DNA from: Bacilli bacterium
Lineage (GTDB): Bacteria; Bacillota_I; Bacilli_A; RFN20; CAG-826
Assembly: GCA_024408085.1 (NCBI GenBank)
Contig: JAKSVH010000004.1
Location: 27,676-91,675, forward strand
DNA length: 64,000 nt
Direction of reading: 5' to 3'
Shown: piece after piece, positions 3,401-20,445 of the stretch
How the letters are laid out: each line of letters starts with the position of its first letter
How positions within the stretch are numbered: the first letter of the stretch is position 1
The notes under the pieces: generated by a model
Database searches by the model: none
What the model saw: only the letters and a program-made list of their open reading frames with translations
Told to the model about the DNA's origin: nothing
Program-made: the position numbers and the translations under genes

Positions 3401-3533
3401 CTATCTTATTAAATTAAAAATATTTTTTATGCGCCCGCAGTTTCAAGGTTAAACTGAGCGCGCGCGAGGCAAAAATTTTTACTTTTTGAAGCAAAAATAT
3501 TTTGTTAAACTCAATATTAGCGAGGTGAAATTT

Positions 3534-4239: not shown

Positions 4240-4268
4240 AAGGATTGCCACAGAGGCAGTCCTTTTTT
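4240..4268 (+). terminator. Rho-independent terminator
   Basis: aaggattgcc-acaga-ggcagtcctt followed by a T run. Confidence 0.85.
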
Positions 4269-4284
4269 GTTGTATAACAAATTA

Positions 4285-4313
4285 TTGAAACCTCTAACAT
4301 ATGCGTGTAAAAT
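4285..4313 (+). promoter_or_regulatory. sigma-A promoter of the molybdo-hydroxylase/purine catabolism operon
   Basis: TTGAAA-17 nt-TAAAAT, 26 nt upstream of ATG 4340. Confidence 0.65.
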
Positions 4314-4339: not shown

Positions 4340-4909
4340 ATGGTAGGAATCATCCTCGCGGGCGGATGTTCAACCCGCGCCAAAGTTAATAAGCTCCTCC
4401 TGGAGGTAGATCGTAAACCTCTTATTCGTCATACAATTGACTCAATAAGAAACTACGTTGATGAAATCCTTGTTGTAACTGGAAGATATAATGATGAACT
4501 CGTTCCTCATTTATCTGATGTTAAGGTTATTTACAACAAGGATTTTTCTTTAGGCATGTTCACATCAGTGCTTGCTGGCGCACGCGCAAGCAAGGGCGAT
4601 GTGCTCATACTCCCAGGCGACATAACAAATGTGAATAATTTAACAATTGAAGCTTTGCTTCACGGAAACAAGGATATCCGCATTCCTTCTTATGAAGGAA
4701 AGACAGGACACCCTGTTTATATTTCTAAGAAATATGTTGAATTATTGTGTGAAGAATCAATTGATTCTAAACTCTGTGATTTTATTTCTAAACACAATGA
4801 TGTAGTGGAAATAATTCCAGTAGATGATCCATTTATCAATTTTGATATTGATACAATTGAAGATTACAACAAATTCATTGAATTACAAAGAAAGGAACTT
4901 ACTTTATGA
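4340..4909 (+). CDS. mocA: MocA/YgfJ-like molybdenum cofactor cytidylyltransferase (NTP_transf_3)
   Basis: Motifs GIILAGG-x-S-x-R...NKLLL, GMFTSV, LPGD, GHPV and DIDT-x-EDY; sits next to Xdh-family genes. Start at ATG 4340 after GGGAG. Confidence 0.8.
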   Translation: MVGIILAGGCSTRAKVNKLLLEVDRKPLIRHTIDSIRNYVDEILVVTGRYNDELVPHLSDVKVIYNKDFSLGMFTSVLAGARASKGDVLILPGDITNVNNLTIEALLHGNKDIRIPSYEGKTGHPVYISKKYVELLCEESIDSKLCDFISKHNDVVEIIPVDDPFINFDIDTIEDYNKFIELQRKELTL

Positions 4910-5673
4910 AAGCAAAATCTTTCCTAAGAGCATCTTCTTTAGAAGAGGCTTACAAGTTAGTCAAAGAGTCTCCTCGTAACAAAATTGTTGCAGGTGGCCT
5001 TTGGTTAAAGAAAGGAAACGCAGATGTCGACACACTAATCGATCTCTCACTTCTTGGTTTAGAGAAGATTGAAGACAAGAAAGATTATGTTGAAGTCGGC
5101 GCAATGGTTTCCCAAAGAGAACTTGAAAAATCTCCACTCGTACCAGAAGTTATTAGAGAAGCAACTAAAGCTATTATGGGCCCAGCATTTAGAGAAATCG
5201 CAACTGTTGGTGGTTCAGTTTATGGCAAGTATGGATTCTCTGATATCATTACAGTTTTACTTGCTCATCATGTGGAACTTGTCTTTTATCCTGAAGCAGT
5301 CATTACGCTTGATGAATATGTCAAAAAACCTGGGTTTTACGATGGAATTTTGACAAATATCCGTATTTTCAAGGATAAAAACAAAGCCTACTTTAAGAAG
5401 GTAGAAATTACAGCTTTAGATTATCCAATCCTTAATGTTGCAGTCGTGAAAGGCAAAGAATACAAGGTCGTTGTTGGTTCACGTCCTTTAGTTGCAGCAC
5501 TTTGTGAAAATTCAACGAAATACTTAAATGAGGGTGGCAAAGATTTTGCTAAAGCTGCTGAACTTGCAGTTGAAGAACTTAAGTTCGGAGATAGCATTGC
5601 TACTAAAAGTGCTTATCGTAAACAACTCGCACTCACATACGTAAGACGTGCTCTTGAGGAGGTATCTAAATAA
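4906..5673 (+). CDS. Xanthine dehydrogenase family FAD-binding subunit (YgfM-like)
   Basis: Motifs SLEEAY, VAGGLWL, LIDLS, REIATVGGSV and SAYRKQLA. Confidence 0.85.
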   Translation: MKAKSFLRASSLEEAYKLVKESPRNKIVAGGLWLKKGNADVDTLIDLSLLGLEKIEDKKDYVEVGAMVSQRELEKSPLVPEVIREATKAIMGPAFREIATVGGSVYGKYGFSDIITVLLAHHVELVFYPEAVITLDEYVKKPGFYDGILTNIRIFKDKNKAYFKKVEITALDYPILNVAVVKGKEYKVVVGSRPLVAALCENSTKYLNEGGKDFAKAAELAVEELKFGDSIATKSAYRKQLALTYVRRALEEVSK

Positions 5674-6125
5674 TGTTAGTCAAATTCAACCTTAATGGTT
5701 TAGACGTTGAAATCAACGTCAAACCTGGAGAGTATCTCTTAGATACACTTCGTAACTACGGAGTTAAATCCGTTAAAAAAGGCTGTGATGGTTCCTCATG
5801 CGGAGCATGTACAGTTTTAGTAGACGATAAACCAGTTTTATCTTGTTCACTTTTAACTGCAAAAGTTGAAGGTCACAAAGTGATGACTGTTGAATCAATC
5901 CAAGATGAAGCAGCAGCACTTTCTGAATGCTTCTCAAGAGAAGGTGCAGACCAATGCGGATTCTGTAACGCAGCATTCGCACTCATGGTGCACGCACTAA
6001 AGAAAGAAAATCCTCATCCAACCGATGAAGAAATCAAAGATTACATGGTTGGAAACCTTTGTAGATGCACAGGTTATCAATCTCAACAAAAAGCAATTAA
6101 AGCTTTCTTAGGAGGTAAGAAATAA
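5673..6125 (+). CDS. Xanthine dehydrogenase family [2Fe-2S] subunit
   Basis: Motifs KKGCDGSSCGACTV...SC, QCGFC and GNLCRCTGY. Confidence 0.93.
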   Translation: MLVKFNLNGLDVEINVKPGEYLLDTLRNYGVKSVKKGCDGSSCGACTVLVDDKPVLSCSLLTAKVEGHKVMTVESIQDEAAALSECFSREGADQCGFCNAAFALMVHALKKENPHPTDEEIKDYMVGNLCRCTGYQSQQKAIKAFLGGKK

Positions 6126-8440
6126 TGAAAAAGAATTTCAAAGTTGTTAATAACTTAACTCCTTCCGTTGACGGAAAAGGCTTAATGCAAGGTCGCGGTG
6201 TTTACACCGATGACTTAGCTCCACAAGGCGCTTTAATTGTTAAGATCTTAAGATCTCCACATGCATTCGCTAGAATTAAATCTATCGATGTCAGTGAAGC
6301 TGAAAAGTATCCAGGCGTTGCCTGTATTCTTACAAAAGATAACGTTCCTCACGTTTCATTTACACGTGCAGGCCAAGGTTATCCAGAACCATCACCATAC
6401 GACAAGTTCATCTTAGATGAATATGTTCGCTATGTCGGTGATGAAGTTGCCGCTGTTGCAGCAGTTGATGAAGAAACTGCTTTAGCAGCTATGAAATTAA
6501 TCAAAGTCGATTACGAGGTTTTAGAACCAGTTTTAGACTTTGAAAAAGCATTCGAAAACAAATCAGTTATCCACCCAGAAGATGGCATTCACGATATGTT
6601 CCCAATTGGTTTTGAACCAAAGAAGAACGTCGCAGCAGCCTACGAGATGGAAGTTGGTAACGTTGAAGAAGAATTAAAGAAATCTGAAGTTGTTGTCGAA
6701 GACACATTCTATTCACAAGCACAAGCTCACGCTATGATCGAGCCTCACACTTGTAACGCACGTTTAGACGAGCATAATAGACTTGTTGTTTACTCAACAA
6801 CTCAAACTCCATATCACATGCGTAGAATCATCTGCAAGACTTTGGGTCTTCCAGTTGATAGAGTTAGAGTCATTAAACCAAGAGTTGGTGGTGGCTTTGG
6901 TGGAAAGCAAGCTTTCCATGGGGAAATGTTTGTCTCCCTTGTTACTTTAAGAACCAATAGACCTGCAAAATGTGTTTACACTCGTGAAGAAGTCTTTGGT
7001 TGTTCATACACAAGACACCCAATGAGAATTTCTCTTAGAGTTGGCGCAAACAAAGATGGCGTTATTAACGCAATCGATTGTAGGACACTTTCTGATACAG
7101 GTGCTTATGGTGAACACGCATTGACAGTCTTTATGATTGTTGGCTCCAAGGTTTTACCACTTTATAACAAAGTTAAAGCTGTTAAATTCGGTGGTAAAGT
7201 TGTTTACACCAACCACGTATCTGCAGGCGCATATCGTGGATACGGCGCAATTCAAGGTAACTACGCTGTTGAGTCCATCATAGATGAACTCGCAGAAGCT
7301 CTTCACATGGATCCAATCAAACTTCGTGAGATTAACTCCATGAAAGAGCAAGAAACTTCACCAATCTTTAAGATTATGGGTGAAGGTACCGAAGGTACAG
7401 AAATGATTATGGAATCCTGCAAGCTTCCATATTGTATTAAACGTGGTAGAGAACTTATGGATTGGGACAAGAAATACCCAGTTAAGAAAGTTGGAGACCA
7501 CAAGATTAGATCAGTTGGCTGTGCCATTGCTATGCAAGGTTCAGGAATCCCATTCTTAGACATGGGTTCTTGTACAATCAAACTTAACGATGGTGGCTCT
7601 TACATGGTTACTGTCGGTGCAACTGATATTGGACAAGGTTCTGATACCGTTATTTCTCAAATTGTTGCAGAAGCACTTCAAACAACCATGGACAAAGTCA
7701 TTATCTATTCATCTGATACAGACTTAACTCCATACGATTGTGGTGCTTATGCTTCATCCACAACTTATGTTTCTGGCAATGCTGCATATAATGCAGCTTG
7801 CAAGATGAGAGAAAGACTCATTAAAGAAGCAGCAGTTGAACTTAAAGCAAAACCAGATGATGTTGAATTTGATGGTAAAGTCTTCAAAGCTGGAGATAAA
7901 GAAATCTCCTTAGTTGATTTATCAACTGGAAGACTTTACAACAACGATACACATCAAATTGCAGTTACAGAATCATACCACGGACACGTTTCTCCACCTC
8001 CATTTATGGCAGCATTCGGAGAATTCGAATTTGATACCGAAACTTATGAATACAAGATGATTAAGTACGTTACAGTTACGGATTGTGGCACAACAATCAA
8101 CCCAGCATTGGCCAAGGGCCAAGTTGAAGGCGGTATTATCCAAGGTTATGGTATGGCTTCTTCAGAAGCAGTTATCTATAACGAAAAAGGAAAACTCCTT
8201 TCAAATACATTTGATACTTATCACATTCCAACAGTTAAAGAAGTTGGAGAACTTGTTACCGAATTTGCTGATTCTTATGAACCAACAGGTCCATTCGGTG
8301 CTAAGTCAGTTGGTGAAATTGGTATTGATACTCCACCAGCAGTTTTATGCAACGCTGTTTATAACGCCTTTGGCGTAAGAATTCATCACTTACCAATTAC
8401 TCCAGAAAAGATTTTCGAGGCAATGAAGGAAAAGAAATAA
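6125..8440 (+). CDS. Xanthine dehydrogenase family molybdopterin-binding subunit (XdhD/YgfN-like)
   Basis: Motifs RSPHAFARI, VGGGFGGKQ, AYRGYG, DIGQG, GQVEGG and GAKSVGE. Confidence 0.92.
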   Translation: MKKNFKVVNNLTPSVDGKGLMQGRGVYTDDLAPQGALIVKILRSPHAFARIKSIDVSEAEKYPGVACILTKDNVPHVSFTRAGQGYPEPSPYDKFILDEYVRYVGDEVAAVAAVDEETALAAMKLIKVDYEVLEPVLDFEKAFENKSVIHPEDGIHDMFPIGFEPKKNVAAAYEMEVGNVEEELKKSEVVVEDTFYSQAQAHAMIEPHTCNARLDEHNRLVVYSTTQTPYHMRRIICKTLGLPVDRVRVIKPRVGGGFGGKQAFHGEMFVSLVTLRTNRPAKCVYTREEVFGCSYTRHPMRISLRVGANKDGVINAIDCRTLSDTGAYGEHALTVFMIVGSKVLPLYNKVKAVKFGGKVVYTNHVSAGAYRGYGAIQGNYAVESIIDELAEALHMDPIKLREINSMKEQETSPIFKIMGEGTEGTEMIMESCKLPYCIKRGRELMDWDKKYPVKKVGDHKIRSVGCAIAMQGSGIPFLDMGSCTIKLNDGGSYMVTVGATDIGQGSDTVISQIVAEALQTTMDKVIIYSSDTDLTPYDCGAYASSTTYVSGNAAYNAACKMRERLIKEAAVELKAKPDDVEFDGKVFKAGDKEISLVDLSTGRLYNNDTHQIAVTESYHGHVSPPPFMAAFGEFEFDTETYEYKMIKYVTVTDCGTTINPALAKGQVEGGIIQGYGMASSEAVIYNEKGKLLSNTFDTYHIPTVKEVGELVTEFADSYEPTGPFGAKSVGEIGIDTPPAVLCNAVYNAFGVRIHHLPITPEKIFEAMKEKK

Positions 8441-9744
8441 TGAACGATTTAACGATTAAAAACGGATTAGTCTACCTAGAAGGTAAATGGGTTAAAACCA
8501 ATTTATCTGTTTTAGGCGAGAAAATCGTTTATATCGGAGATGAAATCAAAGAAGCTAAAGAAGTACTCGACGCCGAAGGGCTTAATGTCCTACCAGGCTT
8601 AATTGACCCACACGTTCACTTTGAACTTAACTGTGGTAGAGTCACTTCATGCGATGATTTCTATACCGGTAGTGTTGCTGCCGCCTATGGCGGAGTAACT
8701 ACTATCGTTGATTTCTTAGACCCTACAAGTAATGCCAAGGATTTAGAAAAGTCTTACTACGATAGAATTGCTTTAGCAAAGAAATCAGTAGTTGACTATC
8801 ATATGCATGCATGTATTAAGAATCCAAACGGCGATCTTGAAGAATACGTTAAAACCGTTAAAAAGCTCGGTATGAAGACAATTAAGTTGTTTACAACTTA
8901 TTCTGATACCGGACGTAGAACATACGATAAAGACATCAAGACATTACTCGAACTTTCAAAGAAATATGACGTAATGATTGAAGCTCATATCGAAAATGAC
9001 AACATGATTGATCTTGGAGAAAGTTATACTTTCAAAGATCTTCCTGTATCACGTCCATCACTTTCTGAAACAAGCGAAGCTCTTAAGTTAGCAAAGCTTG
9101 TTAGAGAAGTAGGTGGAAACTTCTATATGGTTCACTGTTCAAGCGGCGAAACACTTAAAGCTTTAAAAGAACAATTTAGCGACATTCTTAATAAGAATTT
9201 TATTGTCGAGTCTTGTCCTCAATACTTTGTATTTAACAATTCAGTTCTTGAAGAGGAAAATGGCAAACTCTTCACATTTGCTCCTCCTCTAAGAAGCGAA
9301 AGAGAAAGACAACTTTTAACAGCTTACTACACAGACGTTATGTGCATTGGAACAGACCATTGTGCATTTATGTCAAAAGAGAAAGATTATCCGCGTCTCA
9401 TGGGCTTCCCACTTGGCGTTGGAGGAATTGAACATAGCTTCTCAACTATGTATAAAAGATTTGGTGATCCGATCATTGAAAAAATGTCAAAAAACACTGC
9501 AATTCTCCAGGATTTCTCTACAAAAGGCGAACTTTCTGTGGGTAAAGATGCTGACATTTCAATCTTCAAAGAGATACCAGATTACTTCGAAAAAGAGAAC
9601 CACGGAACATGTGATTATTCAATCTATGATGGCATCCTTGGAGCAGGTGAGTTCCAACACGTTATCATCCGTGGCAAGTTCGTTTTGAAAGATAGAAAAC
9701 TTGTTCCACACATTGGAAAAGAAATTATATGCGGGGTGAAATAA
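8440..9744 (+). CDS. Dihydropyrimidinase/hydantoinase (HyuA/HydA-like amidohydrolase)
   Basis: Motifs PGLIDPHVH, AAYGGVTTIVDF, IKLFTTY (carbamylated Lys position), AHIE, VHCS, ESCPQY and GTDH. Confidence 0.85.
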   Translation: MNDLTIKNGLVYLEGKWVKTNLSVLGEKIVYIGDEIKEAKEVLDAEGLNVLPGLIDPHVHFELNCGRVTSCDDFYTGSVAAAYGGVTTIVDFLDPTSNAKDLEKSYYDRIALAKKSVVDYHMHACIKNPNGDLEEYVKTVKKLGMKTIKLFTTYSDTGRRTYDKDIKTLLELSKKYDVMIEAHIENDNMIDLGESYTFKDLPVSRPSLSETSEALKLAKLVREVGGNFYMVHCSSGETLKALKEQFSDILNKNFIVESCPQYFVFNNSVLEEENGKLFTFAPPLRSERERQLLTAYYTDVMCIGTDHCAFMSKEKDYPRLMGFPLGVGGIEHSFSTMYKRFGDPIIEKMSKNTAILQDFSTKGELSVGKDADISIFKEIPDYFEKENHGTCDYSIYDGILGAGEFQHVIIRGKFVLKDRKLVPHIGKEIICGVK

Positions 9745-9745
9745 T

Positions 9746-11038
9746 ATGAACGCTATTATTAACGCAAGAATTTATGACTATGTAACCTACATTGAAAACG
9801 GCTACCTTGTTTATGATGACAAGATTGTCGAAGTAGGTGACATGAAAAACTTCAAAAACAAAGGTTACGACAGAGTCGAAGATTTTGGTGGCGACTTACT
9901 TATGCCAACATTTGTATGCGCACACTCACATATTTACTCAATCTTTGCTCGTGGTTTAATTCTTCCATTCAACCCAAAGAATTTCCAAGATATCCTAGAT
10001 CAAATGTGGTGGAAGTTAGATGCTGAGTTAGTTAACAAAGAAACTTATTACTCTGCAATTTGTGCAGGTGAAGAGTTCTTACTTAATGGCGTTACTTTAG
10101 TAATTGACCATCACGCATCAGGAGAAATCCTCGGTTCACTTAAAGAACTTCGCAAAGCATTTGTTGGACCACTTAAAATGCGTGGAATCTTCTGCTTTGA
10201 AACCTCTGACCGTTACGATGTAAAAGCTTGCCTAAAAGAGAACTCTAGCTTTGCTAGAAAGTATCCAGGTGAAGGATTATTTGGAATGCACGCTTCAATG
10301 TCAATTTCAGATAAGACCCTTAAGAGTATCGCAAAAGTTCAAAATGGTGTTCCAGTTCACGTCCACGTTTCAGAATCTGAAATGGATGAAGAAGATAGCT
10401 ATGCTAAATATGGAAAATCAATTATTGAAAGATTTGATGAAGCAGGAATTTTGATTCCAAACTCACTTATCGTCCACGGTGTTCATCTAAGTGATGAAGA
10501 ACTTGATATCATTGCAAAAAATAAATGTTATATGGTTGTAAATACAACCTCAAATATGAACAATGCAGTTGGTTTACCATATGTAAAGAACTACATTGAT
10601 CACAATATTCCAGTCATGGTTGGAAATGATGGTTTAAATTCCAACATGGCAAGTGAATACATGAACGTTTTGTTCTCTGGACATGTAAGAGCAGGTTCTC
10701 CAACCGCACTTGGCGTTGGTGATGTTCAAAAAATGATTAGAAACTCTTACAAATATGTTGGAGATAGATTAGGTGTAAAACTTGGTGAATTTAAGTCTGG
10801 TTATGAAGCCGACTTCATGAGAGTTCAATACACTCCATTTACCAAGATGGACGAGACTAACGCACTCGGCCACATCGTGTTTGGATTGTTCCCAAATTTC
10901 AAACCAAGCGATGTCTACACTTATGGTAAAAAACGCGTGAAAAACTACAAAATCACCAGCAAATCCCTAGTAAATCAAGTTATTGAGGCTAGAAAATATG
11001 CTGATAATTTATGGACCAAAGTTAAAGGAGGAAAATAA
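9746..11038 (+). CDS. ssnA: SsnA-like amidohydrolase
   Basis: Motifs CAHSHIYSIFARG, WWKLD, NGVTLVIDHHAS, FETSDR, HASMS, SNMNNAVG and GNDG. Confidence 0.8.
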   Translation: MNAIINARIYDYVTYIENGYLVYDDKIVEVGDMKNFKNKGYDRVEDFGGDLLMPTFVCAHSHIYSIFARGLILPFNPKNFQDILDQMWWKLDAELVNKETYYSAICAGEEFLLNGVTLVIDHHASGEILGSLKELRKAFVGPLKMRGIFCFETSDRYDVKACLKENSSFARKYPGEGLFGMHASMSISDKTLKSIAKVQNGVPVHVHVSESEMDEEDSYAKYGKSIIERFDEAGILIPNSLIVHGVHLSDEELDIIAKNKCYMVVNTTSNMNNAVGLPYVKNYIDHNIPVMVGNDGLNSNMASEYMNVLFSGHVRAGSPTALGVGDVQKMIRNSYKYVGDRLGVKLGEFKSGYEADFMRVQYTPFTKMDETNALGHIVFGLFPNFKPSDVYTYGKKRVKNYKITSKSLVNQVIEARKYADNLWTKVKGGK

Positions 11039-11040
11039 CA

Positions 11041-12138
11041 ATGGACATATCTACAAAGTTTGACGGATTAGTACTTGAAAATCCACTTATGCCAGCTGCA
11101 GGACCAGTTGTTGGCGATGCAGAAAAAATGCTCTGGTTAGAGAAGGTTGCAGGTTGTGGCGCAATTGTTGCAAAAACTATTTCAACAAAAGATGCTCACA
11201 TTCCACACCCATGTATTTACGGTGATCGTGATTACATCATGAACTGTGAACTCTGGACAGAATACAGCAAAGAAAAATGGATTAATGAATTTTTGCCTTT
11301 CTATAAGAAAAACTCAATTGGTAAACCACTTATTATTTCGGTTGGTTATACCAAAGAAGATATGGAAGTGTTAATTCCTTTACTCGATGAATTCGCAGAT
11401 GCATTCGAAGTTTCAACTCACTACGTTGGAAATGACTTAAATCAATTAGGCGAAACAGTCGCAACAATTAGAAGACTTACCAAAAAGCCATTCTATATGA
11501 AGATATCTGCTCATATGCCAGATCCAGAAGGATTTGCCCACACAATTAAAGTTAATGGTGCAAATGGTGTTGTCGCAGTTAACTCTCTTGGTCCATCAAT
11601 GAAAATTGATATTGCTAATAGAGAGATTATTTATGGAAATGCTAAAGGATTTGCATGGACCTCTGGACCATACATTAAGAATATTGCTTTAGCAACAGTC
11701 TATACAATTAAGAAAGCAGAACCATCCTTAACCGTTATTGGTGTTGGTGGTATTGCTTCAGCAAGTGATGTCATCGAATTCTTACTCGCAGGTGCAAGTG
11801 CAGTTCAAATGTTATCTGCAGCAATGCTCCGTGGAAAAGAACTCTATGCCAAGATTATTGCTGACCTCCCAGCAACACTTGAAAAGTATGGATTCAAATC
11901 AGTCGAAGATGTTATAAAGACAGGTTTACATCAAGAACTTCGCTATGAAATAGGCGAAGCCCCAACAGTTGATGCTACAAAATGTAGCAAGTGTGGCACA
12001 TGTGCCAGAATCTGTCCTTATTTCGCAATAGAAATGGACGGAACTCCAAAGTTCAATTCTGAAAAATGTTTCAGATGCGGTCTTTGTGTTAGTAAATGTC
12101 CAGTCAAAGCACTTACTTATCACAAGGGGGCTAAATAA
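11041..12138 (+). CDS. Dihydroorotate/dihydropyrimidine dehydrogenase-like FMN barrel fused to a 2x[4Fe-4S] ferredoxin domain (PreA-like)
   Basis: Barrel motifs LENPLMPAAGP, VAKTIS, GVVAVNS, SGP and IGVGGI..ASDVIEFLLAGASAVQ; C-terminal CxxCxxCxxxCP twice. Confidence 0.8.
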   Translation: MDISTKFDGLVLENPLMPAAGPVVGDAEKMLWLEKVAGCGAIVAKTISTKDAHIPHPCIYGDRDYIMNCELWTEYSKEKWINEFLPFYKKNSIGKPLIISVGYTKEDMEVLIPLLDEFADAFEVSTHYVGNDLNQLGETVATIRRLTKKPFYMKISAHMPDPEGFAHTIKVNGANGVVAVNSLGPSMKIDIANREIIYGNAKGFAWTSGPYIKNIALATVYTIKKAEPSLTVIGVGGIASASDVIEFLLAGASAVQMLSAAMLRGKELYAKIIADLPATLEKYGFKSVEDVIKTGLHQELRYEIGEAPTVDATKCSKCGTCARICPYFAIEMDGTPKFNSEKCFRCGLCVSKCPVKALTYHKGAK

Positions 12139-14234
12139 TGGACAAATTTAAAACTTCCACAGCGAAGGTAGACTTTCCTGAAAAGGTTCGTGGTGAAGCA
12201 AAGTTCACTGATGATATTAGCTTCCCAGACATGCTTTTCGCGAAGACTGTTAGATCTACAGTAGCTCGTGGAAAAATTAAGAAGATAACACTTCCTAAAA
12301 TGCCAGAAGGATATCACTGGTTCTGTGCAGATGACATTAAGGGCGAAAACGTCGTTAATATTATCTTCTCAGACTGGCCAGTCTTTGCAGCAGGAAGAGT
12401 TAAATTTATTGGGGAATCCATAGGTATTTTTGTTGGAAAAGACAAGGAAATCCTGGATAAATTGGCTTCTGAGATCAAAATTGATTATGAAGAAGAAACC
12501 CCTGTTTATGAGTTAACTGAAAGCTATATTCACAAGGCATTTAAGAAGGGTGATTACGAGGCTGCAAAAGCTAAAGCAGTTAAGGTAATCAAACATACTT
12601 ACGAAACAGGTTATCAAGAGCAAGCTTACTTAGAGAATCAAGGCATCATTTGTTACTTTGATGAGAACGATAAACTTACACTCACAGGTTCAATGCAATG
12701 TCCGTTCTATATTAAGCGTGCAGTTATGAGATCCTGCGGACTTAAAGACGACGAAGTTAGAGTAATTCAACCAGCAGTCGGTGGAGCCTTCGGTGGTAAA
12801 GAACACTATCCATCAATGATTGGCTCACAAGTAGCAGTTGCAGCTATCGCCCTTCATAAACCAGTTAAGATGTGTTTTGAACGTGCTGAAGACATTACTT
12901 TCACAACAAAACGACATCCTTCACATAGTGAATACGAAGCATTAATTGATCAAGACAACAACATTTTAGGATTAAAGATTAGAGTTGGATTAAATGGCGG
13001 AGCATACAAAGGATGCTCTGGCGTTGTCCTTTCTCGTGCTTTAATTGCTTCATCAAATGCTTATGTATTTGAAAACTTAGATGTTGTTGGAGATGTCTAT
13101 ATGACAAACACAACTCCAACAGCAGCATTTAGAGGTTTCGGTTCTCCTCAAACAATCTTTGCAATGGAAATGTTTATTCATCACGTTGCAAAAGAACTTG
13201 GAGTTGATCCTCTAGAGCTTAGATTTAAATATCTTGCAAAGCAAGGTGATGTAACTGCAAATAATGGTCATTTCCATGATCCAATTGTTCTAAAAGAACT
13301 TATGGAAAAGGCTATGAAGATGTCAGATTATAAACGTAAGCTAAAAGCTTACTCAAAACCAGGCTGCAATAAAGGCATTGGTATGTCCATTTTCCTTCAT
13401 GGCTGTGGATTTACTGGTTCAGGCGAGTCAGATATCATCCACGGCAAAGTAAAACTTGTTAAAGATGAACACGACCACGTTTATTGCTATGCAGCACCAG
13501 TTGACTTTGGTCAAGGCAACCGCACAACACTTAAGAAGATTGTTTCAAATACCTTAGGTCTCCCAGAAGATCAAGTCTCATTTGAAGCACCTGATACAGA
13601 CCATACTCCAGACTCTGGACCAACAGCTGCATCACGTACAATCATTATTGTCGGCTTCTTATTTGAGAAGTGTGCAAAACACTTAAAAGAAATTTGGAAG
13701 AGCGGAGAAAGACAAGAATATGTCGAACCTTATGTTGGACCAAGCTACATCCATTGGGACGAAGATACAATGCAAGGTGATGCTTATCCAGGTTATTCTT
13801 GGGGTGTCAACATAGTTGAAGTTGAATTCAATCCAGTTACATATCAAGTTTCAGTCTTAAATACTTGGTCAACATATGATGTTGGTAGAGTTGTAGATGA
13901 AAGAATTGCTGTAGGTCAAGCTGATGGAGGATTACTCCAAGGTCTTGGCTATGGCTACTTAGAGGAAATGAAATGTGTTGATGGAAGAATGAGAAATAGA
14001 AACTTATCTGATTACATTATTCCAACATTTGAAGATGCTCCTCATATGGAAACAGCATTCATCGATAATCCATTTATTTATGGTGCTAACGGAGCAAAGG
14101 GTATGGGTGAGCTCACATTGGTTGGTGGAGCACCTGCTGTTGCACTCGCAATTGAGAACGCAATTGGCCGAAAAATCTCAAAAATCCCTGCAAATCCTGA
14201 ATATCTTATGGAGGTTATGAAACATGAAAATTAA
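12138..14234 (+). CDS. Second xanthine dehydrogenase family molybdopterin-binding subunit (PucD-like)
   Basis: Motifs QEQAYLE, QCPF, VGGAFGGKE, AFRGFGSPQ, DFGQG, DSGPTAASR and GAKGMGE. Confidence 0.9.
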   Translation: MDKFKTSTAKVDFPEKVRGEAKFTDDISFPDMLFAKTVRSTVARGKIKKITLPKMPEGYHWFCADDIKGENVVNIIFSDWPVFAAGRVKFIGESIGIFVGKDKEILDKLASEIKIDYEEETPVYELTESYIHKAFKKGDYEAAKAKAVKVIKHTYETGYQEQAYLENQGIICYFDENDKLTLTGSMQCPFYIKRAVMRSCGLKDDEVRVIQPAVGGAFGGKEHYPSMIGSQVAVAAIALHKPVKMCFERAEDITFTTKRHPSHSEYEALIDQDNNILGLKIRVGLNGGAYKGCSGVVLSRALIASSNAYVFENLDVVGDVYMTNTTPTAAFRGFGSPQTIFAMEMFIHHVAKELGVDPLELRFKYLAKQGDVTANNGHFHDPIVLKELMEKAMKMSDYKRKLKAYSKPGCNKGIGMSIFLHGCGFTGSGESDIIHGKVKLVKDEHDHVYCYAAPVDFGQGNRTTLKKIVSNTLGLPEDQVSFEAPDTDHTPDSGPTAASRTIIIVGFLFEKCAKHLKEIWKSGERQEYVEPYVGPSYIHWDEDTMQGDAYPGYSWGVNIVEVEFNPVTYQVSVLNTWSTYDVGRVVDERIAVGQADGGLLQGLGYGYLEEMKCVDGRMRNRNLSDYIIPTFEDAPHMETAFIDNPFIYGANGAKGMGELTLVGGAPAVALAIENAIGRKISKIPANPEYLMEVMKHEN

Positions 14235-14694
14235 TTTTAATATGAATGGAAAACCTGTTGAAATTGATGTCGATCCATCCATGAGATTCCTTGATGTTGT
14301 TAGAGACGTTTTACATCTCAACGGCACTAAAGAAGGTTGTGGTGAAGGCTCATGTGGAGCGTGTGTCGTTTTGATGGATGGTAAATCTGTTAACTCATGC
14401 TTACTTCCTGTTGCAAACGCAATTGGTCATGACTTCGTCACAATTGAAGGTTTAAAAGAAACAAAAGAATTTGATATTTTACAACAAGCATTTGCTGAAA
14501 TGGGTGGTTCACAATGTGGTTTCTGTACTCCAGGAATGATCATTGCAGCCTACTCACTTCTCAAACACAACCCTTATCCAACCGAGGCACAAGTTAGAGA
14601 GGAAATGTCAGGTAACCTTTGCAGATGTACAGGTTATCAAGCAATTGTTGAAGCAGTTTTAAAAGCTGCTAAGAAAGGAGCAGGATTATGGTAG
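14224..14694 (+). CDS. Second xanthine dehydrogenase family [2Fe-2S] subunit (PucE-like)
   Basis: Motifs GTKEGCGEGSCGAC, QCGFCTPG and GNLCRCTGY. Confidence 0.93.
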   Translation: MKINFNMNGKPVEIDVDPSMRFLDVVRDVLHLNGTKEGCGEGSCGACVVLMDGKSVNSCLLPVANAIGHDFVTIEGLKETKEFDILQQAFAEMGGSQCGFCTPGMIIAAYSLLKHNPYPTEAQVREEMSGNLCRCTGYQAIVEAVLKAAKKGAGLW

Positions 14695-15539
14695 AAAAAT
14701 ACATTCCAGCTTCCAAAAAAGAAGCATTAGAAGTCCTTTCTAAGCATGATTGCTACATTGTAGCAGGTGGTTCTGACCTTATGGTCATGAAGAAAAACAC
14801 TGCAGGTTTAGCACCTAAGTTTGATAAAGACATTTTATACACATCACACATTGATGAATTAAAAGGTATTTATGAAGATGAAGCAGGAGTTCATGTCAAA
14901 GCTGGCACAACTCTTGATGAAGTCTTAAATTCAAAACTTGCACCTGCATTATTAAAGAAAGCAGTTAGCCAAGTTGCTTCAGCAAACATTAGACACTTTG
15001 CAACACTCGTTGGAAACCTTGCAAACGCATCTCCAGCAGGTGACACAATTGTTGTTGATTTCTTACTTGATGCAAAAGTTAAACTTGAGTCAGTTGGTGG
15101 TGAAAGAATTGTTGACGTCGAAAACTTTGTTCTTGGCGTTAGAAAAATTGATCGTCACCCAGATGAATTAATCACTGAACTTATCTTCCCAAAACTTGAT
15201 TATTCAGGTGATATGTGGTGGAAAGTTGGCTCAAGAAAAGCCGACTCAATTTCAAAGGTCATGGTAGCAGGATATTGGGGAATTCGCGGAAAAATCGTCG
15301 AGAAATTCGCATTATCTTTCGGTTCTGTCTCAATCAAAGCAGTCCGCTCACATGACATCGAAAAAGAGATTATTGGCTTATCAGTTTCCGAATTAAAAGC
15401 TCGTAAAAATGAGTTCATTGAGAAGTATGGAAAGATTGTTACTCCAATTGATGACCAACGTTCAAATGCTGAATATCGTCATAAAGTTGCAATGAACATC
15501 GTTTCAGAATTTATCGACAAAGTCGTAGGAGGTAAATAA
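14688..15539 (+). CDS. Second xanthine dehydrogenase family FAD-binding subunit (PucC-like)
   Basis: Motifs AGGSDLMV, IRHFATLVGNLANASPAGD, KVGSRKA and PIDDQRSNAEYR. Confidence 0.9.
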   Translation: MVEKYIPASKKEALEVLSKHDCYIVAGGSDLMVMKKNTAGLAPKFDKDILYTSHIDELKGIYEDEAGVHVKAGTTLDEVLNSKLAPALLKKAVSQVASANIRHFATLVGNLANASPAGDTIVVDFLLDAKVKLESVGGERIVDVENFVLGVRKIDRHPDELITELIFPKLDYSGDMWWKVGSRKADSISKVMVAGYWGIRGKIVEKFALSFGSVSIKAVRSHDIEKEIIGLSVSELKARKNEFIEKYGKIVTPIDDQRSNAEYRHKVAMNIVSEFIDKVVGGK

Positions 15540-16783
15540 TGAGTTATATTAAAGGTTATCGTTGTACGATTTGTGGTGCCGAATTTAAAGAAGGCGAAGT
15601 AGGTTTAACCTGTCCTCACTGTGGTGAAAAAGGCATCCTTGACGTAATCTATGATTACGATGAGCTTAAAAAAGTACTTACCAAAGAATACTTTTCTAAC
15701 AACCGTAATTACTCAATGTGGCGTTATGCGCCTATCATGGGAATTAAAGAAGATCACATTGATGAAATGTTAAGAGTTGGATGGACTCCACTCTATCACG
15801 CAAGAAATTTAGAGAAAGAATTAGGTGTAGCAAAGCTATACGTTAAAGATGATGGCTTAAATCCAAGTGGTTCAAGTAAAGACAGAGCATCTGGCGTCGC
15901 AGTCTTAAAGGCTGTTGAAGCTGGAGCAAAAGTTATTGCTTGTTCTTCTACAGGTAACGCCGCATCAAGCTGTGCTTGTCAAGCAGCTCATATGGGACTC
16001 AAAGCAGTTATTTTCGTCCCAAAAAGAGCACCTATTGGCAAAGCCACACAAATTTGTTTATACGGTGCTACTTTAGTGAAAGTTGATGGCGACTATAAAG
16101 CCGCATTCCAACTTTCTAAAGCTGCTATCGATAAATACGGTTGGTACAACCGTAATGCTGCCATAAACCCATTCATGGTCGAAGGTAAGAAGACAGTTTC
16201 TATGGAAATTGCCGAACAACTTAACTGGGAACCTACTGATTGGGTAGCTGTATCTGTTGGTGACGGGTGCACAGTTGGTGGCGTATACAAAGGATTTATG
16301 GAATTCCATAAGTTAGGTTTAATTAAACGAATTCCAAAGATTCTTGGTGTTCAATCTACTGGATGTTGTCCATTTGTTATTTCAAGTGAAACAGGTGAAC
16401 CACTTAAAGAAGCAGACGAAAACACTCTTGCTGACTCTATTGCAGTTGGCATCCCAAGAAACCCTATTAAAGCACTTAATGCAATTAAATTTAGTAATGG
16501 TGCTTGGGTTTCAGTGCCTGATAGTGATATCATTAAAGCAATGGGTTTACTCGGAAGAACCGAAGGTATCTTCGGTGAACCTGCCGGTGTTGCCGCAATT
16601 GCAGGCATCAAAAAGGCTGTTGAATTAGGTATCATCAAACCTAATGAAACAGTTACTACAATCGTGACTGGCAATGGTCTAAAAGACCCAGTCAACGGAC
16701 AAAAGGCGGTATCCATGCCTGATCCACTTGAACCTAACATGGACAAATTGGATGAGTATTTAAGACAAAAAGGAGCAATTTAA
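15539..16783 (+). CDS. Threonine-synthase-like fold-type II PLP enzyme with an N-terminal Zn ribbon
   Basis: CxxC...CxxC, then GWTPL, NPSGSSKDR (PLP Lys), SSTGNAASS, EGKKT and TGNGLKD. The operon context suggests a catabolic role. Confidence 0.8.
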   Translation: MSYIKGYRCTICGAEFKEGEVGLTCPHCGEKGILDVIYDYDELKKVLTKEYFSNNRNYSMWRYAPIMGIKEDHIDEMLRVGWTPLYHARNLEKELGVAKLYVKDDGLNPSGSSKDRASGVAVLKAVEAGAKVIACSSTGNAASSCACQAAHMGLKAVIFVPKRAPIGKATQICLYGATLVKVDGDYKAAFQLSKAAIDKYGWYNRNAAINPFMVEGKKTVSMEIAEQLNWEPTDWVAVSVGDGCTVGGVYKGFMEFHKLGLIKRIPKILGVQSTGCCPFVISSETGEPLKEADENTLADSIAVGIPRNPIKALNAIKFSNGAWVSVPDSDIIKAMGLLGRTEGIFGEPAGVAAIAGIKKAVELGIIKPNETVTTIVTGNGLKDPVNGQKAVSMPDPLEPNMDKLDEYLRQKGAI

Positions 16784-16784
16784 T

Positions 16785-18155
16785 ATGTCAAAAATTCCAT
16801 TTGGACCTACGTATGATGAAATGTTAAATCCATCACACCAAGATCCTAAAGTCAGAGCAGAAGCTCTCAAAGCAATCAAGACAAACGAACTTGACCCGAT
16901 TAACCTCTTTAACATCACATGGAAGAATGATAAGGATGAGGTTAATAAAATTGTTCTTCCAAAGGAACTTACAGGTGTAGACGCAAATATCGTTGTCTTA
17001 CTTGGTAAGTATTTCCCATCTGGATCACACAAAGTTGGTCCAGCTTATTCAACACTCATGGAAGGATGTGTTGATGGCGAAATTATCCCAGGAAAACACA
17101 CAATTCTTGGCCCTTCAACAGGCAACTTTGGTATTGGCGTTTCTTACATCACAAACTTGATGAAATATGATGCAATCGTCATTATGCCAGACAACATGTC
17201 AAAAGAAAGATATGAACGTATTTCAAAATACGGTGCAAAACTTGATTTGACACCAGGTTCAGAATCAGACGTTATTCTTACACTTGAAAGAACATACGAA
17301 CTCAAGAAGAACCCAATGAATAGAACTTTAGCTCAATTTGAGCTCTTACCAAACTATCGTTTCCACAGACACGTTACTGGTAATTCCTGTATCGAAGCTG
17401 TCAAAGGTATTGGTAATGGTCGTATCGCATGTTTCTGTTCAGCACCAGGCTCAGCCGGTACTTTAGCAGCAGGCGACCAAATTAAAGTTGCATTCCCAGA
17501 ATGTAAAATTGCAGCTCTTGAACCACATGAATGTTCAACACTCACCAATGGTGGTTTAGGACAACACAGAATTGAAGGTATTGGCGATAAGATGATTACT
17601 CTTATTCACAACGCCTTAACAACTGACTTCATCACCCAAATCATCGATGATGATTGTGTCCGTGGTTTAGCAGTTATCCATGAAGGTAAAGAAATCCTTA
17701 AAGCTCATGGTGTTCCAGCAAAAGTTGCAGATTCAATGGTAGACCTCTTTGGTGTCTCCGGTATTTGTAATATTCTTGGAGCTATCAAGATGGCAAAATA
17801 TCTCAAACTCGGTCCAAACGACAACGTCGTTACAATCGCAACCGACTCATTTGATAGATATCCATCAGTCATTAAGAACCTCCATGATAGAGAACTCGAA
17901 GTTACTGATCACGTTTTAGAGAGATGGTTCAACGACGTCTTTATGGGCGCTGATGGTTCCTATATCCTAGATACACGTGGAGCAGAAGCTAAAGAAAAAC
18001 TCTTCAAACAAAAAGAATCAGACTGGTTAAAATTCGGCTACAAACAAGAATATCTTGATGCCATGAGAAAACCAGAATTCTGGGAAGCAGAATACAACAA
18101 AGTCTTCGAATACGATAAGAAGATTAAAGAAATGCGTGGAAAGGAAATCAAATAA
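16785..18155 (+). CDS. Uncharacterised cysteine-synthase-like fold-type II PLP enzyme
   Basis: Motifs SGSHKVG (PLP Lys), [25 protein letters not shown] and TDS..RY. Confidence 0.8.
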
Positions 18156-19375
18156 TGAAAGTTTCATTTGAAGAAATCCTCAAGAAAGCCGAATCATATA
18201 AGGCTGATATGACAAAATTCCTTCGTGACATGGTTAAGATTCCATCAGAATCATGTGAAGAAAAAGATGTCGTTCTCCGCATTAAAGAAGAAATGCTCAA
18301 AGTTGGTTTCGACAAAGTCGAAATCGACCCAATGGGCAACGTAATGGGCTATATCGGCCATGGTAAACACCTCATCGCAATGGACGCACATATCGATACA
18401 GTCGGTATTGGCGAAATTAAGAACTGGAAGTTCGATCCATATGAAGGTTTTGAAGATGATGTCTACATTGGTGGACGTGGAACTTCAGACCAAGAAGGTG
18501 GTATGGCTTCAATGGTCTATGCAGGTAAAATCATTAAAGATTTAGGCCTCGAAGATGATTACACACTTCTTGTAACAGGTACTGTTCAAGAAGAAGACTG
18601 TGATGGTCTTTGCTGGAAATACATTATTGAACAAGATAAGATTAAACCAGAATTCGTTGTTTCAACTGAACCAACAAGCTGCCAAATCTATCGTGGTCAC
18701 CGTGGACGTATGGAAATCAAAGTCAACGTTCGTGGTATTTCCTGCCATGGTTCTGCACCAGAACGTGGCGACAATGCTATTTACAAAATGGCAGACATTA
18801 TTAATCAAATTAAGGAACTTAACGAAACAGGACTTGCCTATGATCCATTCTTAGGAAAAGGTACTGTTACAATTTCCCAAATCTTCCATAAATCACCAAG
18901 CCGCTGTGCAGTCGCTGATGGTTGCTGGATTTCACTTGATAGACGTTTAACAGTTGGTGAAAACGATAAAACATCAATTGCAGAAATCGAAAACTTACCA
19001 GCAGTTAAAGCTGCTAAAGCAGAAGTCACAATGTACGATTATGAACGTCCAGCCTATACTGGATTAGTTTATAAACAAGAATGTTACTTCCCAACATGGG
19101 TTATTCCAGAGGAATCAATCTACGTTCAATCCTTAAAACAAGGTTACGAAGGATTATTTGGAAAAGCTCCAGTTATTGATAAGTGGACATTCTCAACCAA
19201 TGGCGTCTCAATTTGTGGACGTTTTGGAATTCCTTGCTTAGGCTTCGGCCCAGGTGATGAAAAAGAAGCTCACGCACCAAATGAAAAGACACGTAAACAA
19301 GATCTTGTCATCTGTGCAGCTTTATATGCAACAATTCCAGGTCTTTACCTCGAGAATTTAGCAAAACAAAAATAG
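18155..19375 (+). CDS. ygeY: YgeY-family M20 hydrolase
   Basis: Motifs [58 protein letters not shown] and AHAPNE. Confidence 0.9.
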
Positions 19376-19386
19376 GAGTATAGAAA

Positions 19387-20397
19387 ATGGAAAAAATCGA
19401 ACCAAGATTCGCTGGTCGTCATCTTATTACCTTAGAAGATTTTACTAAGGAAGAAATCGACTACATGCTCAAAGTATCCCATGAAATGAAGGATGCTTTC
19501 TATGCTAACGAACCAATGCCTTTCTTAGAAGGCAAAACAGGTTTCTTGATGTTCTTTGAACAGTCAACACGTACAAGAAACTCATTTGAATCAGGTATGG
19601 CACAATTAGGTGGCCACGCCACATTCCTTGATACATCAATGATGCAAATTGCTCATGGTGAATCAGCAAAAGATACTGCAGTTATTCTTTCTTCATTCGG
19701 TCACATGATTGCTTGTAGATATTGTAACTGGGGACTCGGAAACAAATACATCCGTGAAATGGCCAAATGGTCAACAGTTCCTATCATTAACTTACAATGT
19801 GATTTATATCACCCAATGCAAGCATTAGCAGACTTAATGACAATCGAAGATGAATTTGGAAAAACAAAGAACTTAAAGGTCTCTGTTATTTGGGCAATGG
19901 CCACAACACACAAGAAACCAATTTCAGTTCCAGTTTCACAAGTTTTACTCTTCCCAAGATACGGAATTGATGTCACATTAGCATACCCAGAAGGATATGA
20001 TTTACCAGACTGGGTTATTGAAAAAGCCCGCAAAAACGCCGCTGAAAATGGTGGATCTCTCACTATTACTCACGACATGGATGCAGCTTATAAAGATGCT
20101 GATGTTGTCTTCCCAAAGAACTGGGGTTCATGGGTCACCAACCAATCAACCACAGTTGTCGATGATGCACTCCTTGCCTTAAAAGCATGGAAATGTACAC
20201 CAGACAAAATGGCTCTTGCCAAACCAACCTGCCGTTACATGCATGCACTTCCAGCAGACCGTGTAAACGAAGTTGTTGATGAAGTTATTGATGGACCACA
20301 ATCAGTTGTCTATCAAGAAGCTGAGAACAGAATCCACACAGCTAAAGCTGTTATGGCATTATTTGTTCACGACAAGATCCCATCAGATAGACGTTAA
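19387..20397 (+). CDS. YgeW-like transcarbamylase (OTCase superfamily)
   Basis: Motifs FEQSTRTRNSF, QIAHGE, NLQCD..HPMQ, WA....KPISVP, PEGY.L, PKNW, YMHALPAD and EAENR. Confidence 0.8.
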   Translation: MEKIEPRFAGRHLITLEDFTKEEIDYMLKVSHEMKDAFYANEPMPFLEGKTGFLMFFEQSTRTRNSFESGMAQLGGHATFLDTSMMQIAHGESAKDTAVILSSFGHMIACRYCNWGLGNKYIREMAKWSTVPIINLQCDLYHPMQALADLMTIEDEFGKTKNLKVSVIWAMATTHKKPISVPVSQVLLFPRYGIDVTLAYPEGYDLPDWVIEKARKNAAENGGSLTITHDMDAAYKDADVVFPKNWGSWVTNQSTTVVDDALLALKAWKCTPDKMALAKPTCRYMHALPADRVNEVVDEVIDGPQSVVYQEAENRIHTAKAVMALFVHDKIPSDRR

Positions 20398-20415: not shown

Positions 20416-20445
20416 AGCGGGGTTACTTCGTAGCTCCGCTTTTTT
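20416..20445 (+). terminator. Rho-independent terminator ending the catabolic operon
   Basis: agcggggttac-ttc-gtagctccgct followed by a T run. Confidence 0.85.

Follow-up and report, generated by a model that had tools for sequence, protein, structure and literature searches.

A 14-gene operon in Bacilli encodes a probable selenium-independent variant of reductive urate degradation with a pair of PLP enzymes in the place of YgeX

In the published reductive route of urate degradation, as set out in the parts of the literature on which we draw, urate is reduced to 2,8-dioxopurine by XdhD-YgfM in Escherichia coli or by XdhAC in Clostridium sporogenes (Li et al. 2025, PMC12507026; Liu et al., bioRxiv 10.1101/2025.04.24.650524; a commentary on the pathway, PMC12990295). 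YgfK dearomatises 2,8-dioxopurine, ring opening falls to SsnA and HyuA, both ureido groups are taken off by YgeW (acting with carbamate kinase) and YgeY, and YgeX turns 2,3-diaminopropionate into pyruvate (PMC12507026; 10.1101/2025.04.24.650524). Here we analyze a 64,000-nucleotide stretch of DNA (“the window”) from a Bacilli bacterium (GenBank assembly GCA_024408085.1, contig JAKSVH010000004.1, positions 27,676 to 91,675 of the forward strand), which holds an operon of 14 genes with counterparts in this route. From sequence comparisons, we consider it probable that these genes together specify a complete variant, independent of selenium, of the reductive (2,8-dioxopurine) pathway of purine and urate degradation.

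Like the E. coli-type cluster, the operon encodes an XdhD-type molybdenum (Mo) enzyme with a YgfM-like flavin adenine dinucleotide (FAD) subunit, an SsnA-like and a hydantoinase-like amidohydrolase, a carbamoyltransferase that would work with carbamate kinase, and YgeY. As in the published cluster, a MocA-like gene lies inside it and an XdhABC-type xanthine dehydrogenase is nearby. Unlike in E. coli, XdhD is split here into separate Fe-S and Mo genes, a UacX-type protein stands for YgfK, the carbamoyltransferase falls outside the YgeW family, and YgeX is missing, its place being taken by two pyridoxal phosphate (PLP) enzymes, one ThrC-like and one CysK-like. The genome also differs from the published cluster in that YqeB, YqeC, SelD, XdhC, the biosynthesis of the molybdenum cofactor (Moco) and a UacT/XanQ-type permease were not found in it.

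In Clostridioides difficile, the place of YgfK is taken by UacX, a PydA-like flavin mononucleotide (FMN)/Fe-S protein with PF01180 and no FAD domain (PMC12507026), to which we liken the reductase of the operon by its described architecture. C. difficile keeps YgeX and uses the hydrolase UacY for the carbamoyltransferase, whereas the operon has the PLP pair and a carbamoyltransferase; the C. difficile Mo enzyme lacks an FAD subunit, whereas the first molybdoenzyme set of the operon has one. For growth on purines, C. difficile depends on SelD and YqeB, a finding that Liu et al. cite (10.1101/2025.04.24.650524). With C. sporogenes the operon shares a carbamate kinase located away from the cluster, an arrangement also described for Collinsella (Liu et al., 10.1101/2025.04.24.650524), and the use of a separate xanthine dehydrogenase and 2,8-dioxopurine dehydrogenase (DOPDH), which jointly funnel hypoxanthine, xanthine and urate. 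The difference from C. sporogenes lies in selenium: SelD and YqeBC were present in all cluster-bearing strains of Liu et al., and SelD is required by both C. sporogenes molybdoenzymes (bioRxiv 10.1101/2025.04.24.650524), whereas none of 37 genomes of the genus studied here yielded SelD.

The 14 genes form an operon. Their open reading frames (ORFs), called in the window, all lie on the + strand between 4301/4340 and 20397, are open under translation table 11, and either overlap by 1-11 nt or are separated by gaps of 1, 1, 2 and 11 nt. The coordinates and a downstream hairpin bear out the initial annotation of this DNA, which had described 14 co-oriented, tightly packed genes between one promoter and one terminator (Table 1). 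Pfam and NCBIfam scans of the window proteins return the same succession of domains that it had listed. The host assembly (G000) comprises 1.15 Mb in 38 contigs and is estimated to be 93.1% complete; the window lies inside contig C33. YgfK, DpaL (YgeX), carbamate kinase, YqeB, YqeC and XdhC are all absent from the window, as had been noted. The initial annotation had proposed a reductive urate pathway in variant form, some of its parts being replaced; canonical ygfK and dpaL elsewhere in the genome would speak against this. Whole-genome hidden Markov model (HMM) searches found neither in the 93%-complete genome, and the proposal is supported. The DpaL model NF006058 finds nothing better in the genome than the ThrC-like gene (48.5 bits, cut-off 276), tblastn with E. 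coli YgeX gave no match in the genome, and the best match to YgfK, a PreT-like gene, scored 167.6 bits against a cut-off of 835.

Based on gene content and neighborhoods, we conclude that the ThrC-like/CysK-like pair would functionally replace YgeX. To characterize its occurrence, we collected 80 CysK-like loci from species-representative genomes and mapped their neighbors by tblastn with 15 window proteins and 21 E. coli proteins. The ThrC-like gene was present in 48 of the 80 loci, and at least one other pathway gene (SsnA, UacX, Mo subunit, YgeY, carbamoyltransferase, carbamate kinase, hydantoinase or YgfK) in 56, while ygeX had no match in any of the 80. These loci span Bacilli, Izemoplasmatales, Acholeplasmataceae, Clostridia, Acidobacteriota, Chloroflexota and others. 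At the genome level, DpaL exceeded its cut-off in 2 of 23 pair-carrying genomes. The converse test used 80 metagenome loci centered on YgeY, which is common to both forms of the pathway. YgeX alone was found in 26 of them, both PLP genes in 27, only the CysK-like gene in 6, only the ThrC-like gene in 1, YgeX together with the CysK-like gene in 1 (locus L186), and none of the three in 19, many of which are short. The pair or one of its members without YgeX thus occurs in 34 of the 80 loci versus 26 with YgeX only, counts that are not of independent events, as the 26 YgeX loci include about 9 E. coli contigs that are nearly identical. The exclusivity with dpaL that the initial annotation had proposed checking is nearly complete beside ygeY, both being present in 1 of 61 informative loci. 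In L186 the CysK-like gene lies on the opposite strand and is 47% identical to ours; the locus also holds UacX-like, SsnA-like, hydantoinase and FAD1/FeS1-like genes. Three other metagenome loci (L150, L155, L160) carry a more distant form of the pair (CysK-like 34-35% and ThrC-like 39-43% identical), with the gene order reversed and a YgeW-type carbamoyltransferase beside it instead of an ornithine carbamoyltransferase (OTC)-like one.

The two PLP proteins might instead be ordinary threonine and cysteine synthases riding in the operon, with the C3 product leaving by another way. The ThrC-like protein does exceed the cut-off of the thrC model TIGR00260 (213.4 against 167.1 bits; NF006050, at 272.8 against 303 bits, is not reached), its family matches solved threonine synthases at 302 bits in a profile comparison, and the closest solved relatives of the CysK-like protein are cysteine synthases. 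In 20 of 20 members of the ThrC-like family, however, M, L, T or S stands where both solved ThrC sequences compared have the arginine of the NPYR motif, a residue that binds the substrate phosphate. The family has also gained an N-terminal motif of four cysteines that resembles a zinc ribbon. E. coli ThrA, ThrB and ThrC queries had no match in the genome, leaving it without a recognizable homoserine dehydrogenase or homoserine kinase. The CysK-like protein reaches only 130 bits with TIGR01139 (cut-off 351) and 129 bits with TIGR01136 (cut-off 344). Across several phyla, and in genomes of 1 to 9 Mb, the pair stays beside YgeY, the carbamoyltransferase and SsnA, and it is nearly exclusive with ygeX. 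Given these points, we regard ordinary synthases as an improbable explanation and retain a replacement of YgeX.

The CysK-like family is small (116 clusters reach E<=1e-30 out of 1.84 billion representatives) and has conserved extensions of about 55 residues at the N terminus and about 90 at the C terminus. Among the matches listed in an initial homologue search there were only close relatives, at least 75% identical, and a protein atlas gives only generic names for both PLP proteins. A predicted complex of the two scored 0.01 against a mark of 0.32, a value that gives no answer, neither for nor against binding. Three longer proteins hold a CysK-like domain at E<=1e-30. In one (P0273, 914 aa) a ThrC-like part is joined to a CysK-like part, and in another (P0274, 947 aa) fragments of CysK-like, ThrC-like and SsnA sequences are strung together; we considered these two as Rosetta-stone evidence and dropped them, as both are singletons that may be gene-calling read-through or recoded calls. 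We found nothing relevant to the pair in the literature consulted, although variants of the gene cluster may be tabulated in the supplements of the two 2025 papers, and the widespread occurrence of the pair in the place of YgeX appears to be new. Li et al. colored any PF00291 neighbor “YgeX” (PMC12507026, in the part consulted), which would hide the difference between YgeX and the PLP pair.

Both Mo subunits were compared with E. coli K-12 XdhA and XdhD and with solved structures. The Mo subunit of set 1 (Mo1) is 37.7% identical to the Mo domain of XdhD versus 34.5% to XdhA. It has in common with XdhD an insertion, absent from XdhA and from the Mo subunit of set 2 (Mo2), that bears XdhD Glu606 (Glu420 in Mo1), a residue singled out as orienting urate (Li et al. 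2025, PMC12507026). Like XdhD, Mo1 has Gln at the position of xanthine-oxidase Glu802 and no equivalent of Arg880. Its closest solved structure is 4-hydroxybenzoyl-CoA reductase, a reductive dehydroxylase, and the six residues checked are invariant in 21 of 21 genus sequences. Mo2 is closest to bovine xanthine oxidase among solved structures (215 bits), and its Gln187, Glu222, Arg300, Arg332, Phe334 and Glu658 align in HMMER with bovine Gln767, Glu802, Arg880, Arg912, Phe914 and Glu1261, where we take the active-site numbering and roles of Gln767, Glu802, Arg880, Phe914 and Glu1261 to be those usually given for the bovine enzyme. The checked active-site residues of Mo2 are invariant in 19 of 19 genus sequences, and its score lies below every NCBIfam equivalog cut-off. 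The FAD subunits sort in the same way: the best E. coli match of FAD1 is YgfM (29% identity, 56 bits; XdhB 50 bits) and that of FAD2 is XdhB (79 bits; YgfM 50 bits). Because of the residue patterns, the XdhD insertion and the sorting of the FAD subunits, set 2 (Mo2, FeS2, FAD2) is read as a putative xanthine dehydrogenase and set 1 (FAD1, FeS1, Mo1) as a probable urate reductase making 2,8-dioxopurine.

The SsnA-like protein scores 331.7 bits with NF005540 (cut-off 444) and 308.1 bits with TIGR03314 (cut-off 455.5), SsnA being its best-matching family, and is 30% identical to E. coli SsnA. The hydantoinase reaches 215.5 bits with TIGR02033 (cut-off 393) and is 27% identical to HyuA, and the MocA-like protein reaches 122 bits with the MocA model TIGR03310 (cut-off 186) and is 26% identical to E. 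coli MocA. For the step of YgfK, the operon has a dihydroorotate dehydrogenase (DHOD)-like protein with PF01180, two Fer4 domains and no FAD/NAD(P)H domain. This is the UacX architecture, and by that likeness the protein is UacX-type and would fill the place of YgfK; it probably uses a ferredoxin-type electron input and is just 27% identical to the genome's own PreA. The initial annotation had taken this DHOD-ferredoxin protein for one of several replacements of missing parts. The replacement fits, but it is not new, having been published as UacX (PMC12507026). Guanine could enter the pathway as xanthine by way of a guanine-deaminase/SsnA-like amidohydrolase encoded elsewhere in the genome (G000:C35:47610-48830), whose identity to E. 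coli GuaD is 27%.

In the lower pathway, YgeY scores 686.3 bits with TIGR03526 (cut-off 321.5) and has 72% identity to its E. coli counterpart. A comparison of canonical with variant loci, leaving aside the E. coli group and the present lineage, gives 63-76% identity for YgeY, a likeness that favors one and the same lower-pathway intermediate in both. The last gene of the operon had been called YgeW-like. It does encode a carbamoyltransferase, but one that scores nearer to OTC (256.7 bits with TIGR00658, cut-off 280.85) than to YgeW (192.5 and 182.4 bits with NF005538 and TIGR03316, cut-offs 453 and 500; 35% identity) and reaches neither cut-off. The STRTR and HPxQ motifs are present, HALP stands in place of HCLP, and there is no SMG loop; we take these motifs in their usual meanings, HCLP and the ornithine-binding SMG loop being presumably the marks of OTC. 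By these scores and motifs, the protein is assigned to a subfamily outside both OTC and YgeW. Carbamate kinase, missing from the window as the initial annotation stated, is not missing from the genome: the genome-wide HMM search found it unlinked on contig C36 (389.9 bits against a cut-off of 358).

The initial annotation had also left room for a related heterocycle as the substrate, such as a methylated purine or a pyrimidine. If the operon degraded methylxanthine, a pyrimidine or nicotinate instead of urate and xanthine, this would agree with most of its enzymes being under the equivalog cut-offs of the urate-pathway families, with the different PLP enzymes at the final steps, and with the failure of E. 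coli queries to find a UacT/XanQ-type permease in the genome. Mo2, however, has the equivalents of Glu802, Arg880 and Glu1261 that are presumably typical of xanthine oxidoreductases, Mo1 has the XdhD-specific Glu insertion, and YgeY is similar between canonical and variant loci. A separate, canonical pair for pyrimidines is moreover present in the genome: ORFs 11238-12485 (-) and 12487-13716 (-) of G000:C36:58000-76000 encode an NAD-dependent dihydropyrimidine dehydrogenase, with PreA at 629 bits (cut-off 335) and an adjoining PreT-like, GltD-type subunit. Glutamate dehydrogenase, SerC, a SerA-like dehydrogenase and the lone carbamate kinase lie beside this pair, and no linked dihydropyrimidinase was seen there. 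The idea of another substrate thus gains no support, and we give it little credence.

Taking urate and xanthine as the substrates, we propose the following route, in which the assignments of substrates are our inference from the enzyme families. The set-2 xanthine dehydrogenase would take hypoxanthine and xanthine to urate, and the set-1 enzyme, corresponding to E. coli XdhD-YgfM split over three genes, would reduce urate to 2,8-dioxopurine. The UacX-type FMN/Fe-S reductase would dearomatise 2,8-dioxopurine, after which the SsnA-like and hydantoinase-like enzymes would open the two rings to give 2,3-diureidopropionate. The carbamoyltransferase would take off one ureido group as carbamoyl phosphate, from which the unlinked carbamate kinase would make ATP, and YgeY would hydrolyse the other. 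The ThrC-like and CysK-like enzymes, dividing the labor in a way that may differ among several schemes, would finally turn the leftover beta-substituted C3 amino acid, likely either 2,3-diaminopropionate or a mono-ureido precursor, into pyruvate, directly or via serine. External molybdopterin would load both molybdoenzymes, the MocA-like enzyme adding the cytidylyl group.

The proposed supply of cofactor from outside is suggested by what the genome lacks. Whole-genome HMM searches found no YqeB, YqeC or XdhC in G000, and no MoaA, whose best match scored 43.7 bits against a cut-off of 284; profile searches likewise found no MoeA_N, MoCF_biosynth, MoaC or MoaE in G000, and the MocA-like gene is the sole cofactor-maturation gene found in the genome. 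Control genomes matched as expected in every one of the cofactor-gene searches. With no recognizable molybdopterin synthesis in the cell, the cofactor for both molybdoenzymes would have to come from outside. The initial annotation had called a large molybdoenzyme pathway unexpected in this lineage, and the lack of any recognizable Moco biosynthesis in the genome makes it more surprising than was stated. Across the genus, MoaA, MoaC and MoCF_biosynth co-occur in the same 4 of 37 genomes (G018, G025, G028 and G034), all of which bear the operon, and are missing from the same 20 of the 24 operon-bearing genomes. Of these 20, 12 are estimated to be 91-97% complete (two of them with 6-7% contamination), and one, G029, is assembled in about 10 contigs. 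MoaE was found in 0 of 37 genus genomes, so that even the four moa-bearing genomes seem to be without molybdopterin synthase. Among the six distant genomes that carry the full operon, MoaC is missing in 4 and SelD in 5.

The main rival explanation is that Moco genes exist in these organisms but were missed, lying on unbinned contigs or a mobile element or being too divergent, so that the cofactor is self-made and nothing is scavenged. All genomes here are metagenome bins, and G000 is incomplete and in many contigs. The Moco operon of G028 (G028:C21 10183-16319) comprises moaA, a short moeA-like gene, moaC, a MOSC-MoaB fusion and modABC; with such genes in four genomes, a Moco operon circulates in the lineage. 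The uniform absence of MoaE means that either some genes escape the models or the four genomes are incomplete too. The rival would nonetheless have to account for five independent families (MoaA, MoaC, MoaE, MoCF_biosynth and MoeA_N) and XdhC all missing from G000, where tblastn with the same-genus Moco-operon proteins of G028 matched generic ABC ATPases only. It would also have to account for the joint absence of three families from the same 20 genomes, many of them nearly complete, for the lack of MoaC in most of the distant full-operon genomes, and for controls that behaved as expected. We therefore consider missed genes unlikely, and prefer an external supply of cofactor.

A tree built from four concatenated operon proteins puts the moa-bearing genomes at two positions, which calls for two or more changes of state; the tree is the operon's own and midpoint-rooted, and does not give the direction of change. 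We considered a precise deletion of moa at rplM, as the moa operon of G028 lies beside rplM and the rplM contig of G000 is without moa, and rejected it because the flanks are non-syntenic. An ECF S component encoded upstream of the operon (2797-3348, -) was likewise considered as a pterin or cofactor transporter and dropped, since it occurs in just 5 of 37 genus genomes; its best families are riboflavin/folate-type, under the NCBIfam cut-off.

These patterns suggest cofactor scavenging by the operon-bearing bacteria. In the literature as far as we consulted it, we found no precedent for bacterial Moco salvage, only cases of dietary acquisition in nematodes, namely Caenorhabditis elegans (PMC7849362, PMC9793310) and Haemonchus contortus (PMC7619442). 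The bacteria would be like these nematodes in having Moco-dependent enzymes that rely on cofactor from other organisms; they differ in that the nematodes are animals taking protein-bound cofactor from food, whereas uptake by the bacteria is suggested by gene absence. Tentatively, and short of calling it probable, we propose that these gut Bacilli with their small genomes, joined probably by some Izemoplasmatales and Acholeplasmataceae, are Moco auxotrophs that retain two strongly conserved molybdenum hydroxylases and, of the cofactor pathway, just the final MocA-like tailoring step, and that obtain the cofactor from other microbes or the host diet. The absence of Moco biosynthesis despite strong constraint on the molybdoenzymes appears to be new, as does the absence of the selenium trait (SelD, YqeB and YqeC), by which we infer the variant to be selenium-independent.

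We next turn to conservation and signs of use. With Mo1 as the query, the operon was found in 24 of 37 genus genomes, G000 included, and in none of 24 genomes from the order's other genera. Loci were fetched from 20 relatives. Within the stretch available for each (contig ends truncate several), the genes follow the same order, and nearly all of those present are intact. A short MocA-like ORF was seen in G008 (L115, G008:C29) and a split serine dehydratase in G014 (L102, G014:C50). Mo1 orthologues with 61-69% identity were present in 6 of 16 distant genomes tested (labelled Izemoplasmatales, Acholeplasmataceae, Clostridia and Bacilli), which makes the operon type older than the genus, and it has probably moved horizontally within Bacillota. 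In one of these genomes (G061), Mo1 and Mo2 lie on one contig about 5 kb apart, consistent with the layout of the window. The ratio of nonsynonymous to synonymous substitution rates (dN/dS, Nei-Gojobori) in moa-less pairs is 0.03-0.08 for Mo1 and 0.03-0.10 for Mo2, and in moa-bearing pairs 0.03-0.06 for the Mo subunits; the MocA-like gene is the fastest-evolving of the operon (0.10-0.34). Parts of the stretch appear in six RNA-labelled runs, and contigs from four of them, belonging to four studies, cover most of the operon; differences in contig depth between genes were not used for ranking expression. Judged from these sequence data, the operon is conserved and probably expressed.

In the Moco-less genomes, one could also suppose that the operon is an inactive relic, or that just its non-molybdenum lower half works. 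This would sit well with the literature consulted, which offers no known route of external molybdopterin supply for bacteria and only the nematode cases, with the fast evolution of the MocA-like gene (dN/dS up to 0.34), and with the split Mo2 of one relative (G005) and the short MocA-like ORF of G008. Decay is at odds, however, with the constraint on Mo1 and Mo2 in moa-less pairs, which is in the same range as in moa-bearing ones, with the invariance of the checked catalytic residues in all Mo1 and Mo2 sequences of the genus, with gene order and reading frames kept across species that differ by 20-50% at the protein level, and with RNA-library contigs that cover the Mo genes. A relic seems to us very improbable, and a working operon remains the preferred interpretation.

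Several further observations weigh against a complete and active selenium-independent pathway. All of Liu et al.'s strains with the cluster are reported to have SelD and YqeBC, and the C. sporogenes enzyme is SelD-dependent. The SsnA-, HyuA-, MocA- and carbamoyltransferase-like proteins are all under their NCBIfam cut-offs, and their orthology is therefore assigned by context. No NCS2-type (UacT/XanQ) purine/urate permease was found in the genome with E. coli queries. One relative (G019; L104, G019:C1) has no hydantoinase gene between Mo1 and SsnA, and in another (G005; L110, G005:C30) Mo2 is split into two ORFs. Contigs from RNA libraries may stem from contaminating DNA and show neither strand nor transcript ends, and the absence of a gene from metagenome bins is never proof. 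Locus L186, which holds both ygeX and a CysK-like gene, and the redundancy of the E. coli contigs among the YgeX loci belong here as well.

Table 1. Features of the operon and its borders (positions in the window)
Feature	Position	Strand	Remarks
Terminator-like hairpin of upstream gene	4240-4264		Precedes the promoter-like site
Promoter-like site TTGAAA-17-TAAAAT	4285..4313	+	10/12 consensus matches; a consensus match alone, with no bearing on function
MocA-like (MobA-type) NTP transferase, probable Moco cytidylyltransferase	4340..4909	+	PF12804 98.6 bits
FAD subunit, set 1 (FAD1), YgfM-like	4906..5673	+	PF00941
2Fe-2S subunit, set 1 (FeS1)	5673..6125	+	PF01799, PF00111
Mo subunit, set 1 (Mo1), XdhD-type, probable urate reductase (DOPDH)	6125..8440	+	
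Hydantoinase/dihydropyrimidinase-like amidohydrolase, HyuA counterpart	8440..9744	+	TIGR02033
SsnA-like amidohydrolase	9746..11038	+	NF005540
UacX-type reductase, DHOD-like FMN barrel and two 4Fe-4S motifs	11041..12138	+	PF01180, Fer4 families
Mo subunit, set 2 (Mo2), canonical xanthine-dehydrogenase type	12138..14234	+	
2Fe-2S subunit, set 2 (FeS2)	14224..14694	+	PF01799 111.7 bits
FAD subunit, set 2 (FAD2), XdhB-like	14688..15539	+	PF00941, PF03450
ThrC-like PLP enzyme, N-terminal four-cysteine zinc-ribbon-like motif	15539..16783	+	PF00291
CysK-like PLP enzyme, 456 aa	16785..18155	+	PF00291
YgeY, M20 ureido-group hydrolase (predicted)	18155..19375	+	TIGR03526
Carbamoyltransferase, subfamily neither OTC nor YgeW	19387..20397	+	
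Intrinsic-terminator-like hairpin	20416..20440	+	11 pairs (6 G-C), then a T-run
L-serine ammonia-lyase, beyond the terminator	20485..21747	+	TIGR00720 369.3 bits, cut-off 345.1

At the upstream border, the first gene could begin at an ATG at 4301 or at 4340. In relatives, the alignment of orthologues sets in at residue 13-14 of the longer ORF, and the ATG at 4301 falls inside the promoter-like site; for these two reasons the MocA-like gene most likely begins at 4340, the start that the initial annotation had chosen. The 243-aa protein encoded before the operon (3486-4217) is found on other contigs in relatives. Further upstream, a 760-aa protein (42-2324, +) is encoded immediately upstream of smpB; it carries eight Big_3 (bacterial Ig-like) repeats and matches no NCBIfam model. 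At the downstream border, the L-serine ammonia-lyase is syntenic, being located downstream of the operon in the 14 relatives whose fetched stretch extended so far, and it may belong to the pathway. With a syntenic serine dehydratase behind the terminator, the route from the C3 amino acid to pyruvate via serine stays possible.

That gut urate-consuming bacteria influence host urate levels is a premise of both 2025 papers (PMC12507026; 10.1101/2025.04.24.650524, as consulted). A survey built on ygeX, ygfK, selD or yqeBC would overlook every genome carrying the variant described here, which is about as common as the canonical form in our YgeY-centered metagenome sample (34 versus 26 of 80). The PLP pair is a family-level unknown with a well-defined candidate substrate, and hence can be assayed directly. 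The absence of SelD, YqeB and YqeC contradicts the published link between the pathway and selenium and offers a natural test of what selenium contributes. If cofactor scavenging is true, it would be the first bacterial case of molybdenum-cofactor salvage, and the strong purifying selection on two molybdoenzymes in bacteria without molybdopterin synthesis turns the exchange of Moco from microbe to microbe into a testable question.

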